DNA from: Eledone cirrhosa
Lineage: Eukaryota
Reading direction: 5' to 3'
Length of the DNA stretch: 64,000 nucleotides
Assembly (NCBI GenBank): GCA_964016885.1
Contig: OZ024749.1
Span: forward strand, 24,986,001-25,050,000
The notes under the pieces were generated by a model. That model saw nothing but the letters and a program-made list of their open reading frames with translations. It did not search any database and was not told where the DNA came from. Below are positions 4,225-64,000 of the stretch, piece by piece. The first letter of the stretch is position 1, and every line of letters starts with the position of its first letter. The translations under genes were made by a program, and so were the position numbers.

Positions 4225-4268
<44 letters not shown>

Positions 4269-4502
4269 TTAGAAACACACAGATACATGCGGACACACAC
4301 ATATATACATGAATGCATCCGCACCCAACTGCGAGTTAAGGGTGCCAACTTCACCGATGTTGCTCAATGAATGACTGGGACAGACCAATTCAGTTTGAAC
4401 CAGACTGAACCAGTATCAGAGTTAAAAATACATTATGAAGAGAGAAGAAACATTTAGATATAATTAGTAATAAAATGTATCATACCTAAACTGCTCCTAA
4501 AT

Positions 4503-4590
4503 TCCTCGACTACGTAGTTTCGTGGCATAAACAAAAACAATATATCAAAGATATAGAGTCCTTGCGAGGTCTGCCAACTTATCAAGAGGA
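4503..4590 (-). ncRNA. Type I hammerhead ribozyme, U3-A8 core, long stem II insert (family D, unit 1)
   Basis: Minus strand: UCCUC-UUGAUAA-GuUGGCA...UGCCAC-GAAAC UACGUA GUC^GAGGA. Stem I UCCUC/GAGGA, palindromic stem III ACUACGUAGU. Confidence 0.8.
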
Positions 4591-5093
4591 TACCTCATTT
4601 TACTAGTCTCAAGAACGCGTCCACACGACGTGAGAAAGAATCCCAAAAGGCGGAGGGGGAGATAGTCACGCGATATAACGGTCGAGAAACAGAGCTAAGC
4701 CTCTTATAACCACGAAGAAAATACCACGGAGGCGGAGGGGGTATTCATATCGAGGCCGTAGAAGAGGTAGTGAAGAAGGCGAGAAGTACGAGTAATGGAA
4801 GCTTTCCAGTTGTCCCCACACTTCAAAGATTGCTCGACCAGAGGGAGTTATTAATATATTTAGAAACACACAGATACATGCGGACACACACATATATACA
4901 TGAATGCATCCGCACCCAACTGCGAGTTAAGGGTGCCAACTTCACCGATGTTGCTCAATGAATGACTGGGAGAGACCAATTCAGTTTGAACCAGACTGAA
5001 CCAGTATCAGAGTTAAAAATACATTATGAAGAGAGAAGAAACATTTAGATATAATTAGTAATAAAATGTATCATACCTAAACTGCTCCTAAAT

Positions 5094-5181
5094 TCCTCGA
5101 CTACGTAGTTTCGTGGCATAAACAAAAACAATATATCAAAGATATAGAGTCCTTGCGAGGTCTGCCAACTTATCAAGAGGA
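5094..5181 (-). ncRNA. Hammerhead ribozyme (family D, unit 2)
   Basis: Same motif 591 bp downstream. Confidence 0.8.
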
Positions 5182-5684
5182 TACCTCATTTTACTAGTCT
5201 CAAGAACGCGTCCACACGACGTGAGAAAGAATCCCAAAAGGCGGAGGGGGAGATAGTCACGCGATATAACGGTCGAGAAACAGAGCTAAGCCTCTTATAA
5301 CCACGAAGAAAATACCACGGAGGCGGAGGGGGTATTCATATCGAGGCCGTAGAAGAGGTAGTGAAGAAGGCGAGAAGTACGAGTAATGGAAGCTTTCCAG
5401 TTGTCCCCACACTTCAAAGATTGCTCGACCAGAGGGAGTTATTAATATATTTAGAAACACACAGATACATGCGGACACACACATATATACATGAAATCAT
5501 CCGCACCCAACTGCGAGTTAAGGGTGCCAACTTCACCGATGTTGCTCAATGAATGACTGGGACAGACCAATTCAGTTTGAACCAGACTGAACCAGTATCA
5601 GAGTTAAAAATACATTATGAAGAGAGAAGAAACATTTAGATATAATTAGTAATAAAATGTATCATACCTAAACTGCTCCTAAAT

Positions 5685-5772
5685 TCCTCGACTACGTAGT
5701 TTCGTGGCATAAACAAAAACAATATATCAAAGATATAGAGTCCTTGCGAGGTCTGCCAACTTATCAAGAGGA
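5685..5772 (-). ncRNA. Hammerhead ribozyme (family D, unit 3)
   Basis: Same motif in the array. Confidence 0.8.
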
Positions 5773-6275
5773 TACCTCATTTTACTAGTCTCAAGAACGC
5801 GTCCACACGACGTGAGAAAGAATCCCAAAAGGCGGAGGGGGAGATAGTCACGCGATATAACGGTCGAGAAACAGAGCTAAGCCTCTTATAACCACGAAGA
5901 AAATACCACGGAGGCGGAGGGGGTATTCATATCGAGGCCGTAGAAGAGGTAGTGAAGAAGGCGAGAAGTACGAGTAATGGAAGCTTTCCAGTTGTCCCCA
6001 CACTTCAAAGATTGCTCGACCAGAGGGAGTTATTAATATATTTAGAAACACACAGATACATGCGGACACACACATATATACATGAATGCATCCGCACCCA
6101 ACTGCGAGTTAAGGGTGCCAACTTCACCGATGTTGCTCAATGAATGACTGGGACAGACCAATTCAGTTTGAACCAGACTGAACCAGTATCAGAGTTAAAA
6201 ATACATTATGAAGAGAGAAGAAACATTTAGATATAATTAGTAATAAAATGTATCATACCTAAACTGCTCCTAAAT

Positions 6276-6363
6276 TCCTCGACTACGTAGTTTCGTGGCA
6301 TAAACAAAAACAATATATCAAAGATATAGAGTCCTTGCGAGGTCTGCCAACTTATCAAGAGGA
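6276..6363 (-). ncRNA. Hammerhead ribozyme (family D, unit 4)
   Basis: Same motif in the array. Confidence 0.8.
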
Positions 6364-6866
6364 TACCTCATTTTACTAGTCTCAAGAACGCGTCCACACG
6401 ACGTGAGAAAGAATCCCAAAAGGCGGAGGGGGAGATAGTCACGCGATATAACGGTCGAGAAACAGAGCTAAGCCTCTTATAACCACGAAGAAAATACCAC
6501 GGAGGCGGAGGGGGTATTCATATCGAGGCCGTAGAAGAGGTAGTGAAGAAGGCGAGAAGTACGAGTAATGGAAGCTTTCCAGTTGTCCCCACACTTCAAA
6601 GATTGCTCGACCAGAGGGAGTTATTAATATATTTAGAAACACACAGATACATGCGGACACACACATATATACATGAATGCATCCGCACCCAACTGCGAGT
6701 TAAGGGTGCCAACTTCACCGATGTTGCTCAATGAATGACTGGGACAGACCAATTCAGTTTGAACCAGACTGAACCAGTATCAGAGTTAAAAATACATTAT
6801 GAAGAGAGAAGAAACATTTAGATATAATTAGTAATAAAATGTATCATACCTAAACTGCTCCTAAAT

Positions 6867-6954
6867 TCCTCGACTACGTAGTTTCGTGGCATAAACAAAA
6901 ACAATATATCAAAGATATAGAGTCCTTGCGAGGTCTGCCAACTTATCAAGAGGA
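6867..6954 (-). ncRNA. Hammerhead ribozyme (family D, unit 5)
   Basis: Same motif in the array. Confidence 0.8.
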
Positions 6955-7286
6955 TACCTCATTTTACTAGTCTCAAGAACGCGTCCACACGACGTGAGAA
7001 AGAATCCCAAAAGGCGGAGGGGGAGATAGTCACGCGATATAACGGTCGAGAAACAGAGCTAAGCCTCTTATAACCACGAAGAAAATACCACGGAGGCGGA
7101 GGGGGTATTCATATCGAGGCCGTAGAAGAGGTAGTGAAGAAGGCGAGAAGTATGAGTAATGGAAGCTTTCCAGTTGTCCCCACACTTCAAAGATTGCTCG
7201 ACCAGAGGGAGTTATTAATATATTTAGAAACACACAGATACATGCGGACACACACATATATACATGAATGCATCCGCACCCAACTG

Positions 7287-7488
7287 CGTCGTGTGGACGC
7301 GTTCTTGAGACTAGTAAAATGAGGTATCCTCTTGATAAGTTGGCAGACCTCGCAAGGACTCTATATCTTTGATATATTGTTTTTGTTTATGCCACGAAAC
7401 TACGTAGTCGAGGAATTTAGGAGCAGTTTAGGTATGATACATTTTATTACTAATTATATCTAAATGTTTCTTCTCTCTTCATAATGTA
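7287..7488 (+). mobile_element. Inverted partial family D unit capping the array; HHR at 7327-7414(+)
   Basis: Reverse complement of the unit segment tacattatg...ccacacgacg, joined through a CG microhomology at 7287-7288. Confidence 0.9.
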
Positions 7489-7538
7489 TATATATATATA
7501 TGTATATATGTGTGTATATATATGTATATATGTATATA

Positions 7539-14409: not shown

Positions 14410-15645
14410 TTGGGGAGGGTCATATTTGTTTAATATTGCCAGAATTAATAACAGAACACACTCACTGTTTGGTTGGTTTTCGCTTTTCGCTTCTGTGTCT
14501 TTTATATCGGTAATCTAATTTATTCGGTCCTCAATGTTGCCATTGACTGACCAACGGTCAAAAATAATACAGATACACTATAGACACAAACATATATATA
14601 TAGTTTATCAAAGTTCTTTCGTTGCACATCTGCAACATCGTCAGTGGTGCTATTGTTTCCTCCCGTTGCATTGTATTTTCTACGCCATCTTTATTTAGTC
14701 TGTTTATATATTTATTTATTTGTTTATTTTATTTTGTCTTCTTTGCCCCATGCGTTTGCGTATGTTTATAGTGTTTTGTTTGATGTGTGTTCGTGATTGG
14801 GTGACTGTGTATTGATTAATGTATTCTATCTTTACTAGTGTGTGTTTATATGTGTTTGTTGTTATTGTGCTTGTGTATGTATTTATTTATTTATTTATAC
14901 TTCACTTAGGTTAGTGTTGTTATCTCATTCATTCTTTCTGTTTAGCCTTGGTCTTCTAAGTTCTATTTTACTGGCCTCTCTGATTTGCCTATCTGCTGGG
15001 TCATTTTGATGTTTAGATATTATTCTAATTTCTATGTTGTCTATGTTACCGTCGTGTTGTTGTCTGGCATGTTCGTATAGTACTGAACCGTTTTTTCGTC
15101 CTTAGTTCCCCCCAGTGTTGGTCTATCCTTTCACCTATGCTACGAGCTGTCTCGCCTATGAATGCTGTTGTCATGTTTCTGCAAGTACCCGCTGTACATC
15201 TTATGCTATAGACTACGTTTCTAGTTTTACAGTTTATCCGGGAGTTTACCTTACATATGATACATTTCCTATTAGTACAGTGGGTTTTCTTAAAAGGGTA
15301 GATTTTGCTGATCAGGGATTTTATGGTGGTTCCTGGCTTTTCTACCAACTTGATCTTTAAGCAGTCTAAATAAAGATGGCGTAGACGATACAATGCAACG
15401 GGAGGAAACAATAGCACCACTGACGATGTTGCAACGAAAGAACTTTGATAAACTATATATATGTGTATGTGTCTATATTGTATATGTATTATTTTTGACC
15501 GTTGGTCAGTCAATGGCAACATTGAGAACCGAATAAATTAGGTTACCGATATAAAAGACACAGAAGCGAAAAGCGAAAACCAACCAAACAGTGAGTGTGT
15601 TCTGTTATTAATTCTGGCAATATTACACATATATGACCCTCCCCG
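14410..15645 (-). mobile_element. 5'-truncated Penelope element with inverted pseudo-LTR arms
   Basis: 14410-14706 is inverted at 15358-15645. HHR-like motifs at 14607-14648(-) and 15416-15449(+). The terminal motif gggagggtcat is shared with ~17010, 22155 and 55373-55460. Confidence 0.8.
15046..15360 (-). pseudogene. Penelope GIY-YIG endonuclease fragment
   Basis: CTNRKCIIC...CKTRNVVYSIRCTAGTC...FIGETARSIGERIDQH. Confidence 0.85.
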
Positions 15646-35144: not shown

Positions 35145-35184
35145 TATAAGTATTAATAAAATAGATGTTCTTTTCATCAATTAC

Positions 35185-35237
35185 ATTCTATTATACATAT
35201 TTCGGATGTACAACAGTACGTCCTCATCAGACAAAAT
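35185..35237 (-). ncRNA. Type I hammerhead
   Basis: AUUUUGU-CUGAUGA-GGAcGUAC uguu GUACaUCC-GAAAU augu AUA^AUAGAAU; lies inside a small element with inverted ends (~35138-35345). Confidence 0.7.
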
Positions 35238-35514
35238 ATAATGATACATGACATACACTGAGATGTTAAATGATTAAGAGATATTCAAGGTAGTCAATTA
35301 ATACTTATATTTTACTAATATTAATACTTATATTTTAATATTAATACCTCCTGAAAATTATTTTCGTTGAGTGCTTCCAATATACTGTAAAACTCATTCT
35401 TTGACATAATCATCGAATAGTGTTTAACAACTTAATATTTATATATATATATATATATATATGTAAAAAGTGAAGAAGAGCATGATCAACAGTACAAACA
35501 AGGACATTTATTTA

Positions 35515-46378: not shown

Positions 46379-46733
46379 TACATATATAATATATCTATAT
46401 ATATTACATATATAATATATGTGTGTATATATATATTACATATATATTATATATATACAGGTATGACAGTGGTTTGATGGTGTAAGTGTGTACACACATA
46501 TATATTTACAATTACATTTCGCAATGTTACAAAGGACTTTTAAAGTACGTGAAAAATGCAATAAATGTTCTTTGATATTAGCCTATATTTTCCTTTCAAC
46601 TCTAAATAAAACAGAATCTACACACACACAAACGCACGCACACACACGCACACACACACGCACACGGACGCGCACACACACACACACTCATATATAAATA
46701 TATATATATAAATACATGTATACATAAATGTAA

Positions 46734-46824
<91 letters not shown>

Positions 46825-47389
46825 TTTAAGACTATACAGAGCATTTGATGTTATTCCAAATTGAAGGATAAGTGTTTCAAACTTTGTTTTATCATGAGTT
46901 AAAGGTCTATAGATTTTTCCCTGGATTTTACTAAATTCTGTGGATGAATTTGTATCCTGATTCTCTTTTGAGATGAGTTTGAGTTATTTTTCCTAAATCT
47001 TTCGTTAACTACTTTTCCCATCTTGACGTTATAGTCGCATATATGTTATAGAATGCCGTTAGCTTCTTGCTAAAACAATCTCTATACCTCTCATTTATAT
47101 TTATACTCGGATTCTTTTCCTAGAGTGCTTAAACTATCTGTGACTAATCCCGGTTTTTTTCATAAAAACTGTGATAATTATTGCTATTTTGCTGAACTCC
47201 TTGTAGAGTTTTTTTTCAGAATGTATTTGACTGCTATTTCTTGTAAATAAACATTCACTTCCATCCTGACGTCACTAGCCCCGTTTTTTCCTCATGTGCT
47301 TTTTCATAAATACACATGAAGGCGAACTAGCCAGTTTTAGAACTCCCTTTTTCGGATTATATTACTGTGAGAGCCCTGGTTTCTGTTGA

Positions 47390-47470
47390 GCTCTGCTGAT
47401 GAATGAAATCCAACCGTGACCATCTCCACTGAAAGTTTTCATGAAATAGTCTTTTAAGACTATACAGAGC
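47390..47470 (+). ncRNA. Canonical type I hammerhead
   Basis: GCUCUG-CUGAUGA-AUGAAA...UUUCAU-GAAAUAGUCUU uu AAGACUAUA^CAGAGC. Confidence 0.85.
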
Positions 47471-48017
47471 ATTTGATGTTATTCCAAATTGAAGGATAAG
47501 TGTTTCAAACTTTGTTTTATCATGAGTTAAAGGTCTATAGATTTTTCCCTGGATTTTACTAAATTCTGTGGATGAATTTGTATCCTGATTCTCTTTTGAG
47601 ATGAGTTTGAGTTATTTTTCCTAAATCTTTCGTTAACTACTTTTCCCATCTTGACGTTATAGTCGCATATATGTTATAGAATGCCGTTAGCTTCTTGCTA
47701 AAACAATCTCTATACCTCTCATTTATATTTATACTCGGATTCTTTTCCTAGAGTGCTTAAACTATCTGTGACTAATCCCGGTTTTTTTCATAAAAACTGT
47801 GATAATTATTGCTATTTTGCTGAACTCCTTGTAGAGTTTTTTTTCAGAATGTATTTGACTGCTATTTCTTGTAAATAAACATTCACTTCCATCCTGACGT
47901 CACTAGCCCCGTTTTTTCCTCATGTGCTTTTTCATAAATACACATGAAGGCGAACTAGCCAGTTTTAGAACTCCCTTTTTCGGATTATATTACTGTGAGA
48001 GCCCTGGTTTCTGTTGA

Positions 48018-48098
48018 GCTCTGCTGATGAATGAAATCCAACCGTGACCATCTCCACTGAAAGTTTTCATGAAATAGTCTTTTAAGACTATACAGAGC
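48018..48098 (+). ncRNA. Canonical type I hammerhead (second unit)
   Basis: Identical motif 628 bp downstream. Confidence 0.85.
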
Positions 48099-48371
48099 AT
48101 TTGATGTTATTCCAAATTGAAGGATAAGTGTTTCAAACTTTGTTTTATCATGAGTTAAAGGTCTATAGATTTTTCCCTGGATTTTACTAAATTCTGTGGA
48201 TGAATTTGTATCCTGATTCTCTTTTGAGATGAGTTTGAGTTATTTTTCCTAAATCTTTCGTTAACTACTTTTCCCATCTTGACGTTATAGTCGCATATAT
48301 GTTATAGAATGCCGTTAGCTTCTTGCTAAAACAATCTCTATACCTCTCATTTATATATATATATATATATA

Positions 48372-48436
<65 letters not shown>

Positions 48437-49316: not shown

Positions 49317-49774
49317 ATATATATATATATATATATAGGTATATATATTCATTTTTGTATAAATTTATGTATATATATACACATATATATTAATATACAT
49401 ATGTATTTATATTGTGTGTGTTTATATATATATATACACGTATATATACATGTATTTATATTGTGTGTGTTTATCTATGTATGTATTTGGGTATGCATAT
49501 TATTGTAGGTATACAAACATTCATTGCTTCTTATGGGAGCAATATTTGGAATCAATGATCCGTTCCTCATAACTCTACGAGCAAATATTATTGAACTATT
49601 GATGATATCTATCCTCGTGTCTTGAGCTTAACTTTCTAATACATGCAGTTCTCAATTAATACACACAATATCTGTGTTACTTGATCTCCTGTTGTCATGT
49701 TATTTTTAATTAGGCAGAGAAAGAGAGAGAGGCAGACAGAGAGAGGGCGGTGGATTGGCAGTATCGGATTAAGG

Positions 49775-51875
49775 GATTCAAAACAAGTAGTAAAATGATT
49801 TTGCATGCGGACAAAACTAATAACATATACAGCCTAGATTATGATACATATAGAAAGTTTATATATAAGAGCTACAAGAAAACTACTATGAAAATCCTAA
49901 AAGACATTAATATAGAAGGCCGGAATATAGTGTCCAAAATAGGACTTCAGAGATATACACAACCATACAGCCCAAACCCCCTAGATTCTCTCTGGAGGAT
50001 TTCATTAGTAACCCCTCGATTAGAGTAATCTGCCCTTCCATGTCTGACATTGGCATTATCAGGAAGAACATTTTAGATAAAATCATCCCACATATTAAAT
50101 ACAAAATATACCTTAAACAATGGGGAAATACGGGTGAAGTTATTGAATGGTTTAAAGATATCAAAGAAATAAAAAAATAAAAATTATTCAATTTGATATC
50201 AATTCATACTACACCTCTATTTCCGCTATCCTATTAAATAAGGTACTAATTAGGGCCATGAACAATAGTGACCTGACTAGACCCCAGATTGATGTCATAC
50301 TTGCGGCCCGTAAAACCGTAATCACTTTTGAAGACCAGTTATGGACCCACAAGGATACGCATAGCAACTTCGACATAACCATGGGATCTAGTGACTCGGC
50401 GCAGGTCACTGATATGGGGGGCCTATACTTACTAAACAAAATCCAACGAAATCAACGGTGGTTTGTACCGCGATGATGCACTTCTCCGTATAGACTATAA
50501 TAAATTTAATATAGAAAGATCTAGAAAACAATTGCACAAGACTTTCAAAAACTATAACCTAAGTATCAGCATAGACAAAAACACTAAAACGTTAACTTCC
50601 TAGATGCCACCCTTTAACTAGACTCTAAGATATATACACGATTCCATAAACCTAACGAAAAACTGATTTACGTAAATACCAAGTATAACCACCCTAGATC
50701 AATATTAAGCTATATCTCTAAAGGAATATCCAATAGAATCTCTAATCTATCTTATGACGAAACCATATTTAGCAAAAACTTACAATACTATAATCAGGCA
50801 TTAGCTAGATCAGGCCATAATAATGAGATCGAGTTCCTACCTATAAAAACACATAGTTACAACATTATTTTGCACAATATGTCCATGAGGAAAAATAGTA
50901 ATAGGAATAATAACCACACACACACAAGTACGAAGGGTGGCAACTAACGTAACCGACACCAGGGAAGGCACCAAAAATACCATAAACGGAAGCATCTCAC
51001 CAGACATAAAAAAACAAAAATAGAAGAAGAAATAATACATTTTTAACCCCCCCCCCCCCATGCAATCTAAACGTCTCTACCAACCTACCTAAGCCTTTCT
51101 TCTCACTCCTAGATAAAAACTCCCCATCTGGCCACAAGTACCATAGTCTTATAAATAAAAACACCATTAAAATCTCCTACTCTACCACGCCTAACATAGC
51201 ATACCACATAGCTAGTAGCAATTAAAGAAAAATTAATACTTACTTCCAACAAACTAAAACACAGCAGGGGGTAAACCTTCAAAACAACGTAATACCTGCA
51301 AACCCTAATATCAATAGTAATAATGGTAATAGCACTAGTGAAAGCAATAACGCTAGGAGCGACTACCCCCATAACCATAATGCAATACCTAGCAACCAGA
51401 CTTCTACACAACATAATAACCGGCAGCTTAACATCCAACATAATTGTAACTGTAGATCTAATAGAACCTGCCCTTTAGATAAAAAACTGCTTAATCAAGG
51501 ACATCATATACTCATGCGCCGTCAAAATTAGCAACTCTTCTGAAACCTATATAGGATCTACTTCGAACTGCTTCAAAACCAGATACAATTCACACCTCCA
51601 TTCTTTAAAAAAACACAGTCTAGCCAACTTCACTTCACTATCTAGCTACATACACTATCTAAAAACTAGAAATAGATCTTATACACTTCAATGGGAAGTA
51701 ACAGGTAAGGCGGCATCGTACAAACCACCTAATAAATTCTGTAACCTCTGTCTATTAGAGACCCATACTATAATTTTCTCAAACCATAACCTCCTTAATA
51801 AAAAATCGGAAGTGTTTGCATCGTGCCAGCACCACTTCCGGCACTCCTTCCAAAACTTTAAACCCAATATATAAC
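49775..51875 (+). pseudogene. Penelope-like retroelement RT + GIY-YIG ORF, multiply frameshifted (possibly Naiad-like clade)
   Basis: ADKTNNIY, FDI..YTSI, FDITMGSSDSAQVTDMGGLYLL, GLYRDD, HKPNEKLIYVN..NHP, CNCR..CPL, TYIGST..FKTRYNSH, CNLCLLE..LLNKKSE. Degenerate HHR-like motif downstream at 53411-53455(+). Confidence 0.9.
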
Positions 51876-61822: not shown

Positions 61823-61875
61823 TTGCCTGAAGAGGTCACAGCCAATGATGGCTGTCACCGAAATATATATAGCAG
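61823..61875 (+). ncRNA. Type I hammerhead
   Basis: UUGC-CUGAAGA-GGUcACAGCCA auga UGGCUGUcACC-GAAAUAUAUAUA^GCAG. Confidence 0.75.
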
Positions 61876-62495: not shown

Positions 62496-64000
62496 TTTCT
62501 TTATTTACCATAAAGGCATAAAAAAAAGGGACAAATATAAAGGAGGAGTTTACATACAATCGAGTAAAAAGGGTATAAAATGGAAATAATCGAAAATAAC
62601 CTCAAAAGGGAGGGGACGTGATGGGGGTTGCACACACCCCCGAAAAAGTGTGCAATCCTTTTCCCGGGGAGCACATGGAGAAGGTGCTCCCCTCTCCTTT
62701 ACTTCTTTACCTACAGGATGGTATACAGAGAAGGCCCATTTACACGAGCCATTCTCGCCACTATCACCCACCTTTCATAAAACTGCCTGTGGCCAAGCAC
62801 CTCTCTCTCCATTCTTATCCTTCTTCCGAAGTGATATCGGAAGAAGTAGAGCAGACTATGGCCAGAGAGGAAGTTGCCTGACCTCAGACCTTTCAATCGT
62901 GTCCACCAAACAACCTCTTTCAGCATGGCTATTACGCACAGAAAAACCGCCTTTGCTTCCTTTGTGAAGAGGGGAGGCGGTTTGATTGTCATCACGGACT
63001 CGGCGCACCCGAGACAGCAGTCGTTCGGCGTAGCCCCACAGATCAGCCACGCCCGGACATTGCACCTATGCGTACGCAACGGTTTCTTCGTGACGCACGC
63101 ATCTAGGGCAAATCTTTTTTGAGGGATCCCTGCCCGGGCGCCCGTGTCTGTAGAGCCTCTCTCGAACGGGTAGAGCCCCCCGGTAGCATTGCCAGGCTAG
63201 TGACTTCTGGAAGTTGTCCATTGGTCCCGGGTCGAAATTCCTACCGAACAGGCTGGCCAGTTCGTCTTCTTCCATGTCCAGCGACTCTCCAAGGGTGTCA
63301 TCGCCCCGGCTAGCTACCAGCCCTCTATAGAATGATGAGGTGGATTCTCCACCGACGGCCTGGCCCGCTTGCCAGAGAGCCTGAGCGTCTGAGTACACTC
63401 AGTGTGCCAGTCTCCCAGTTTTCCGGATCTTTGCTTGACCCAGGACTGCAGCTCGGTGAGCGAGACGAGGCTGGGAAAGGCTCGTTTCACGAACGGAGCC
63501 CACACCGGTTGACCAGTGAGTAATACCTGTAGGTGCCGTAGCCTTAATGCGTGCCTACGCATCATCAACCACGGCATCCCCAGCCCTCCTTTCGAAGGTT
63601 GTTGGCAGCAGATGGATCTTCTCACCATAGGAGGGCGCTTCTTCCAAAGAAATTGGAAGAGCATGCGTTCCATGGTGGTGAGTGTTTCCTTAGGGCAAGG
63701 CACGACAGTCAGGCGGTAGTAAGTGACGGACGCTATGTAAATGTTCGCCACCTCCGCCCGCCCTTTTAGGGACAGCTTACACTTGGCCCATTTCTGGGTT
63801 AGTGCAAAAACCTTGTTCGTAACCTCGTTCCAGTTCTTTTCCACCTGGAGGTCCGGTCCAAACCAGACCCCAAGCAACGTTACCGGGCCCTCCGTCCAGT
63901 GTCCGACGACACCGTCGGGAGGCATCGGTCTGCCTCTCCACGTTCCGAGTTACAGCCCGATGGATTTTTCCCGGTTCAGTTTCGCTCCTGACAACCTTTC
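62496..64000 (-). mobile_element. Tx1/L1-clade LINE, 3' part of ORF2 plus 3' UTR (disrupted; runs off the window)
   Basis: LLGVWFG, LSLKGRAEVAN, SKGGLG and ALPVRERL..CPRC..EETV. Stop codons at ~63950 and 63066, frameshift at ~63380; AATAAA followed by (TCTA)n. Confidence 0.9.

Follow-up and report, generated by a model that had tools for sequence, protein, structure and literature searches.

A 628-bp hammerhead-bearing repeat family with a fixed 3' end and graded 5' ends in TA microsatellites of Eledone cirrhosa

A tandem array in a 64-kb stretch of Eledone cirrhosa DNA (contig OZ024749.1; "the window" denotes this whole stretch) is very probably an insertion of a young, non-coding retroelement that contains a complete hammerhead motif and was likely copied by target-primed reverse transcription from an RNA of more than one 628-bp unit. 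There is good reason to regard the corresponding family as a new family of a described kind, the animal non-LTR retrozymes, and not as a new kind of element. The features of the window are collected in Table 1.

The array measures 1544 bp, close to the figure of about 2.45 apparently identical units between (TA)n tracts given in a preliminary description of this DNA. Start-to-start spacings of its direct repeats are 628 and 628, and the segments 46818-47733 and 47446-48361 are 99.9% identical over 916 nt. With unit position 1 set at window position 46822, the insertion is truncated on its 5' side at unit position ~625 and reaches unit position 284 at its 3' end. The first letters of the array (46818-46820) fall within stem III of the hammerhead and overlap the TA tract by AT(A), bearing out the proposal that the array begins inside this stem with TA microhomology. 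The GC content of the unit is 34%.

Table 1. Features of the 628-bp and 591-bp families in the window.
Feature	Position	Strand	Basis or remark
(TA)n tract, left part of target microsatellite	46690..46820	.	TRF and sequence
Single insertion (628-bp family) comprising 2.46 units, head to tail	46818..48361	+	repeats and family coordinates
Incomplete first hammerhead (stem III and 3' strand of stem I only)	46818..46842	+	
Internal junction, element 3' end (284) to 5' start (285)	47105..47106	+	29-mer across the junction
Complete type I hammerhead motif 1	47390..47470	+	predicted cut 47464/47465
628-nt monomer that the two cuts would release	47465..48092	+	predicted from motif geometry
Second internal 284/285 junction	47733/47734	+	
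Complete type I hammerhead motif 2	48018..48098	+	predicted cut 48092/48093
Fixed 3' end of the whole family (...CTCTCATTTATA), continuing into (TA)n	48338..48361	+	24-mer matches
(TA)n tract, right part of target microsatellite	48352..48434	.	TRF and sequence
591-bp family	4257-7288, inverted arm 7287-7489	− (sense)	

A descriptor search of the array returned only two complete hammerhead motifs, and the partial copy at the array start lacks the catalytic core, so that no cut is predicted there. Each complete motif reads, in order, GCUCUG, CUGAUGA, stem II (AUGAAA..UUUCAU), GAA, stem III, A17 and CAGAGC. Stem I (GCUCUG/CAGAGC) has 6 bp and helix I is open; stem II (AUGAAA/UUUCAU) has 6 bp around a 28-nt loop; and stem III (AUAGUCUU-AAGACUAU) has 8 bp closed by a 2-nt loop. 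The conserved core is complete, with CUGAUGA at 47396-47402 (C3 U4 G5 A6 N7 G8 A9) and GAA at 47443-47445 (G12 A13 A14) in the first motif. The A15.1-U16.1 pair is present, and H17 is not G but A (A17 at 47464). The two predicted cuts, after 47464 and after 48092, lie 628 nt apart, and cleavage would release the exact unit-length monomer that had been proposed.

Folding and a chance test likewise uphold the earlier identification of two full hammerheads. The minimum-free-energy fold of the 81-mer is exactly the hammerhead three-way junction, at -18.2 kcal/mol (z -3.2), and none of 200 shuffles was equally stable. In 100 first-order Markov resamples, searched on both strands, the chance expectation per 64-kb window was 0.03 matches to the loose descriptor and 0 to the strict one (all stems >=5 bp). 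Within a 161-nt stretch around the motif, the fold predicted to have minimum energy is not the catalytic one, and this stretch is no stabler than shuffles (z 0.14); the whole 628-nt RNA is more stable than its shuffled versions (z -4.5, 20 shuffles). None of the Rfam hammerhead models (Hammerhead_1 and related) matched at the gathering score, nor at E<=10, on either 1.75 kb or 111 nt of sequence, and the likely reason is the combination of a long loop 2 with a long stem III. The only Rfam matches over the motif, weak ones to C/D-box snoRNAs (17 bits, cut-off 49, E ~1), were rejected as a chance overlap of UGAUGA and CUGA.

Stem II of hammerheads usually has a G-C pair at 10.1-11.1, and here the closing pair is A10.1-U11.1. 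A subfamily is marked by U at position 10.1 and an accompanying T insertion, seen in 16 of the 95 complete motifs that the fetched loci contain. The density of private changes does not differ between the hammerhead and the rest of the unit (5.0 vs 5.1 per kb across 87 arrays), which is what dead copies are expected to display; there is no sign of constraint on the hammerhead in these arrays.

To place the array in its family we surveyed the genome (3.0 Gb, 1796 contigs). The unit has at least 126 matches at 98-100% identity among 39 scored of 2131 candidates. The family is young, with private divergence of ~0.5%. Partial matches at the 3' terminus end at unit position 282-285 in 38 of 39 cases, and those at the 5' terminus begin anywhere between positions 31 and 596. 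TA repeats follow all 21 arrays inspected and also precede most of them. The 24-mer across the 3' junction has 824 exact matches in the genome, compared with 0 for a reversed control, and the genome contains at least 824 dispersed insertions of the family. For an alternative 3' end at the better (AT)3 site within the unit there are 0 exact matches genome-wide. The 29-mer across the internal 284|285 junction has 266 matches, and at one locus at least seven such junctions follow in a row at a spacing of 628-629 bp.

The lengths and 5' ends of the insertions were determined in a sample consisting of the first 80 matches to the 3' junction in genome order. TA is part of the search pattern, and the sample is therefore conditioned on a 3' TA. 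All 80 insertions chain back from unit position 284-285, beside (TA)n. They are 28-2961 bp long (0.04-4.7 units), with a median of 282 and a mean of 429 bp (n=80). Fifty-seven reach 100 bp, 41 reach 269 bp and 29 reach 400 bp; 17 are at least 628 bp long, six at least 1256 bp and one at least 1884 bp. Seven of the 80 fall between 628 and 856 bp, and the length distribution has no step at one unit. A near-perfect TA repeat (>=10/12 bases) lies immediately 5' of 61 insertions. Hotspots of 5' ends open with TA-like letters, at positions 218 (7 copies), 209 (5) and 250 (4), and copies sharing a hotspot have unrelated outer flanks, which identifies them as independent insertions. One of the 80 adjoins an inverted head-to-head arm (L075/L114), and the 3' end of that arm is at about position 230 and not at 284.

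These observations alter one element of the preliminary description, which had anticipated permuted start and end points among the copies. The 5' starts do vary, but the 3' end is fixed (38 of 39 arrays and all 80 junctions), indicating retrotransposon-style 5' truncation and not free circular permutation. A fixed 3' end, graded loss from the 5' side and joins at microhomology are together the classic signature of target-primed reverse transcription. Furthermore, the polarity of truncation sets the sense strand as the plus strand of the window, the same strand as the hammerhead. Insertions of 1.07-1.36 units cannot arise by unequal crossover of shorter copies, and hence require a template longer than one unit.

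The position of the 5' ends relative to the predicted cut further constrains this template. The cut site is crossed 57 times by 41 insertions, and no 5' end falls at positions 10-22 around it, so that cut linear RNA was not the usual template. The template RNA was thus either left uncut or re-closed into a circle. Only two of the 80 insertions begin at positions 275-310, one at ~287 (L081) and one at 310 (L050), and the lack of a clear pile-up of 5' ends at 285 argues against monomers joined by template jumps.

Most arrays appear to have been made at insertion, given the fixed 3' end and the graded 5' end. Variants are shared among the units of one array: after 12 overlapping fetched loci were dropped, units were found to differ by a mean of 3.1 changes within arrays versus 11.5 between arrays (11 arrays, 28 units). 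Some growth is local and occurred after insertion. In one array (L077) the units alternate in an A-B-A-B pattern, and every other hammerhead has A6 changed to G in its core and a mismatch in stem III. A lineage of 1256-nt dimers, in which alternate units carry a dead hammerhead, was considered as the source of this pattern. The 77-mer spanning the double-mutant hammerhead is found nowhere else in the genome, however, and local duplication is the simpler explanation. Two further loci (L079 and L080) have a common flank and differ by one unit.

No ORF is present in the unit, whose longest stop-free runs are 58 aa on the plus and 84 aa on the minus strand, and it contains no tRNA module. Insertions longer than one unit (17 of the 80) always continue into another unit and never into an ORF, and the RT and GIY-YIG ORF of an autonomous Penelope-like element is absent from both the unit and the multi-unit arrays. 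None of the copies sampled in the genome survey is attached to an ORF. Low-stringency BLAST of the unit returned family copies only, whether the target was the other repeats of the window, fetched loci with RT/GIY-YIG ORFs (~0.6 Mb) or three loci extended around RT-like ORFs. An exact-pattern search for the start of the hammerhead behind a different upstream base found only one mutated family copy. One locus (L116) was considered as a case of a shared 3' tail, but the sequence proved to be a copy truncated to 39 bp that lies within a local palindrome.

RT-like and GIY-YIG-like ORFs are common beside TA tracts in the genome loci sampled; the ORF at L116 reaches the Pfam RVT_1 cut-off (39.7 vs 29.6 bits), and the other three of the four nearby ORFs scanned gave Pfam matches below the curated cut-offs or none. 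At L114 a separate RT-like element occupies the same microsatellite as the unit and is not joined to it. The fetched loci and the window together hold about 27 further distinct type I hammerhead-like sequences, several of them in short TA-flanked insertions or downstream of RT/GIY-YIG-like ORFs, and their stem II displays compensating changes between copies. Public contigs from four runs cover the unit unevenly, with 4-10 times greater depth between ~47400 and the 3' end than over the 5' part. Truncation at the 5' end will account for some of this difference, but the step is too sharp to be due to it alone, and related repeats probably share the 3' part. Immediately upstream of the hammerhead, some public contigs depart from the unit sequence. 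A junction leading from 47733 to 47106, which could be tandem or circular, occurs in contigs labelled as two different organisms.

The same window contains a 591-bp family, which the preliminary description had treated as a first ribozyme array of the same architecture. The shared architecture and the unrelated sequence are both confirmed, but the recurrence of the ribozyme is not: neither strand of the 591-bp family contains a CUGANGA core, even with one mismatch allowed, and Rfam gave no ribozyme match. With no hammerhead found there, the wording 'second ribozyme array' is not supported as far as the 591-bp family is concerned. The 591-bp family is dispersed, with at least 188 matches among 40 scored of 613 candidates, and identity is 99-100% in nearly all of the 150 matches listed and 98% in two. 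Like the 628-bp family, it forms tandem units in (TA)n with fixed 3' and variable 5' ends (the latter in four loci inspected and the window), its copies are 98-100% identical, and it has head-to-head inverted arms. It differs in its opposite sense strand, in ending at either of two 3' positions (586 and 421 in sense coordinates, each beside (AT)n) and in the lack of a detected hammerhead. The inverted arms often use the other of the two 3' sites (four loci and the window). That 591-bp arrays form without a detectable hammerhead indicates that tandem arrays as such do not require a ribozyme.

The satellite and SINE-like repeats of newts and schistosomes are non-coding, tandem or dispersed, and transcribed with a type I hammerhead (the newt case is cited in PMC7229834); accounts of them have either long satellite arrays or solitary SINE-like copies. 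The 628-bp family is unlike these: its arrays are short, number in the hundreds, lie in microsatellites and have ends structured like those of a retrotransposon. Non-LTR retrozymes, according to the available text of Cervera & de la Pena (2020, PMC7229834), carry type I hammerheads in short, low-GC, non-coding tandem repeats that are expressed as circRNAs. The family resembles them, as far as that text describes them, in its single type I hammerhead per head-to-tail, non-coding, low-GC unit, in its many dispersed short arrays and in its co-occurrence with Penelope-like elements. Judged at the level of sequence, it would appear to have all the features of the retrozyme class. Its unit length lies within the 51-972 bp given for retrozyme consensus sequences in the accessible part of a recent preprint (Li, Clavereau & Pollet 2026, 10.64898/2026.07.22.740005), but exceeds the 170-400 nt of the circRNAs described there or in the text above as experimentally shown. 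Relative to the retrozymes covered by these sources, the 28-nt loop 2, the 8-bp stem III and the A-U pair at 10.1-11.1 are distinctive.

The life cycle proposed in PMC7229834, in the portion available, has a target-primed circRNA giving rise to tandem cDNA, with Penelope-like elements as likely helpers, and it fits the length distribution of the 628-bp family. The preprint, in its accessible part, reports frog retrozymes homologous to the terminal repeats of Penelope-like elements; it ascribes arrays to local amplification and calls the mechanism open, whereas the arrays of the 628-bp family mostly look made at insertion. For Penelope-like elements, the available text of Craig et al. (PMC8557442) describes 5' truncation, partial tandems, inverted copies and a (TA)n bias, and partial tandems are formed by hammerhead-free elements too. 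The 628-bp family shares with these elements, as so described, the 5' truncation, the partial tandems, an inverted 5'-truncated arm and the strong bias towards (TA)n targets, and, like their terminal repeats, it has its hammerhead in the 3' portion of the template. It is unlike them in that the unit has no RT/GIY-YIG ORF and no homology to a coding element was found in the loci compared. The long stem III also sets the unit apart from Penelope-like hammerheads, and is predicted to let the motif act as a monomer.

On the basis of the 5' truncation, partial tandems, inverted arm and (TA)n target, we infer that a Penelope-like element supplies the reverse transcriptase and endonuclease. A nicked TA repeat would then prime on UAUA(U) at unit positions 281-285. 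The hammerhead may cut multimeric transcripts into 628-nt monomers, and a host ligase may close these into circles. That an RNA circle served as the template, with several turns yielding the tandem units, is a possibility we put a little below even. The full sequence of events, in which the arrays are footprints of rolling-circle reverse transcription from a ribozyme-made 628-nt circle primed internally at UAUA by nicked (TA)n over several turns, is offered as a tentative reading. The same retroelement might instead have been copied from a linear RNA, with the hammerhead a passenger or relic, which we consider possible but somewhat doubtful. Such a template could be an uncut multimeric read-through with a (UA)n tail, or monomers strung together by serial template jumps, the fixed 3' end being inherited from the boundary of the source copy. 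The 591-bp family, in which no hammerhead was found, builds arrays of the same kind, and hammerhead-free Penelope-like elements likewise form partial tandems (in the available text of PMC8557442); arrays of at least seven units exist as possible sources; a (UA)n tail would explain both the single 3' end and the disuse of the better TA site (0 vs 824 matches); and the failure of the catalytic fold to be the predicted minimum in context agrees with a passenger role. A linear template, however, leaves unexplained why a family only ~0.5% diverged has a complete canonical motif. If that motif cuts, run-off 5' ends at position 16 are expected, against 0 in 57 crossings, and jump-joined monomers should pile up at 285, where only the two insertions noted above begin nearby. 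The different 3' sites used by the arms of inverted pairs also fit internal priming better than an inherited tail.

Two other explanations fare worse under the same observations. The units could be merely the terminal repeat of an autonomous Penelope-like element, with the arrays being truncated copies of its tail end; tail fragments with hammerheads are indeed common in the genome, and the greater contig depth towards the 3' end, like the divergence of some contigs upstream of the hammerhead, would suit such an origin. We nonetheless judge it very improbable, as every insertion longer than 628 bp (17 of 80) runs into another unit and never into an ORF, the arrays that were read extend to 4.7 units and one locus has the run of seven or more evenly spaced junctions, the unit itself is without an ORF, the search with a different upstream base yielded just the one mutated family copy, and comparison with the sampled RT-bearing loci revealed no homology. 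Spread at the DNA level only, by unequal crossover, segmental duplication or an AT-targeting rolling-circle transposon of the Helitron type, could draw on the post-insertion gain of units at L077 and L079/L080, and Helitrons insert at AT and can form tandems. Their termini are 5'-TC...CTRR-3', however, and those of the 628-bp family are not Helitron-like. Sub-unit insertions can neither arise nor grow via unequal crossover, and the dispersal to at least 824 sites with unrelated outer flanks, the constant 3' end together with graded 5' truncation that leaves as little as 28 bp, and the location of the hammerhead on the sense strand as set by truncation polarity make this the least credible explanation, one to which we give hardly any weight.

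Animal retrozymes have been described, but their movement is still only a proposal, and a literature search combining retrozymes with target-primed reverse transcription brought up no paper on end structure. The addition made here is the end structure over hundreds of insertions, which supports the formation of arrays at insertion. If the rolling-circle reading is true, the proposed life cycle of animal retrozymes would gain its first genome-scale evidence; that reading rests on the smooth, roughly exponential distribution of lengths from 0.04 to 4.7 units and on the lack of run-off ends at the cut. Being young, abundant and sharp-ended, the 628-bp family is a clean data set on retrozyme mobility, offering a single priming site, 5' joins at TA microhomology, templates of more than one unit and no ends at the cut site. 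Together with the hammerhead-free 591-bp family it forms a natural pair for asking what the ribozyme contributes. For the annotation of this genome, the 628-bp family accounts for hundreds of short tandem repeats in TA microsatellites.

At L077, a genomic insertion of the 628-bp hammerhead family, every second hammerhead has the core A6 replaced by G together with a mismatch in stem III, a double-mutant form that is confined to this locus. Two further insertions on the same contig (L079 and L080, G000:C1, ~340 kb apart) are identical in their 5' flank and 5' end, with lengths of 1188 and 561 bp that differ by exactly one unit. The pair suggests either duplication of a locus with an altered number of units or a duplicate in the assembly.

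Features of the window and of locus L077
Feature	Position	Strand	Description
591-bp family array and inverted arm	window 4257-7489	sense = minus	5.1 tandem units
Inverted arm of 591-bp array	window 7287-7489		head-to-head
Decayed ORF pieces	window 15046-15537	-	RT-like and GIY-YIG-like motifs, together with 49714-51874
Decayed ORF pieces	window 49714-51874	+	RT-like and GIY-YIG-like motifs, together with 15046-15537
Type I hammerhead-like motif	window 35180-35242	-	short AUAU-type stem III; in short (TA)n-flanked insertion
Type I hammerhead-like motif	window 61823-61875	+	short AUAU-type stem III; in short (TA)n-flanked insertion
Open frame	window 63314-63949	-	211 aa
L077 array	G000:C1:203698085-203702808		4.7 units, pattern A-B-A-B

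Pieces of the 628-bp unit were also recovered in public contigs. A 38-nt hammerhead piece (window 47417-47454, loop 2 to stem III) lies inside otherwise unlike sequence under two coded organisms, and it seems that this piece, and nothing more, is common to another repeat family. In one run that bears a different organism's label, a contig joins window 47521-47733 to 47106-47138; it thereby spans the unit junction as well as the 3' part and shows 3 differences over 246 nt. A further run, under yet another organism label, matches window 47518-47728 over 210 nt apart from 1 differing letter and 1 gap. Such near-identical contigs under other organism labels reflect either close relatives or transfer of the element between species.

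The two type I hammerhead-like motifs have relatives in many of the fetched loci, with compensating changes in stem II. Copies of the 591-bp family are dispersed at 98-100% identity and have fixed 3' ends of two alternative kinds, both adjoining (AT)n; neither a hammerhead core nor an Rfam ribozyme match was found for this family. The decayed ORF pieces are probably remnants of old Penelope-like elements. Their GIY-YIG Pfam match is below the cut-off at 18 bits, and the sequence downstream of the plus-strand pieces showed no hammerhead. The 211-aa frame resembles the C-terminal portion of a LINE-type reverse transcriptase and has no Pfam match at E<=0.01.

A recurring palindromic repeat is centred on many of the target (TA)n tracts (seen in the flanks of insertions L006, L008, L010, L023, L024 and L050). 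The outer flanks there are either mutual reverse complements or common to several loci, and hence a foldback or MITE-like element may have seeded much of the TA microsatellite in the Eledone cirrhosa genome.
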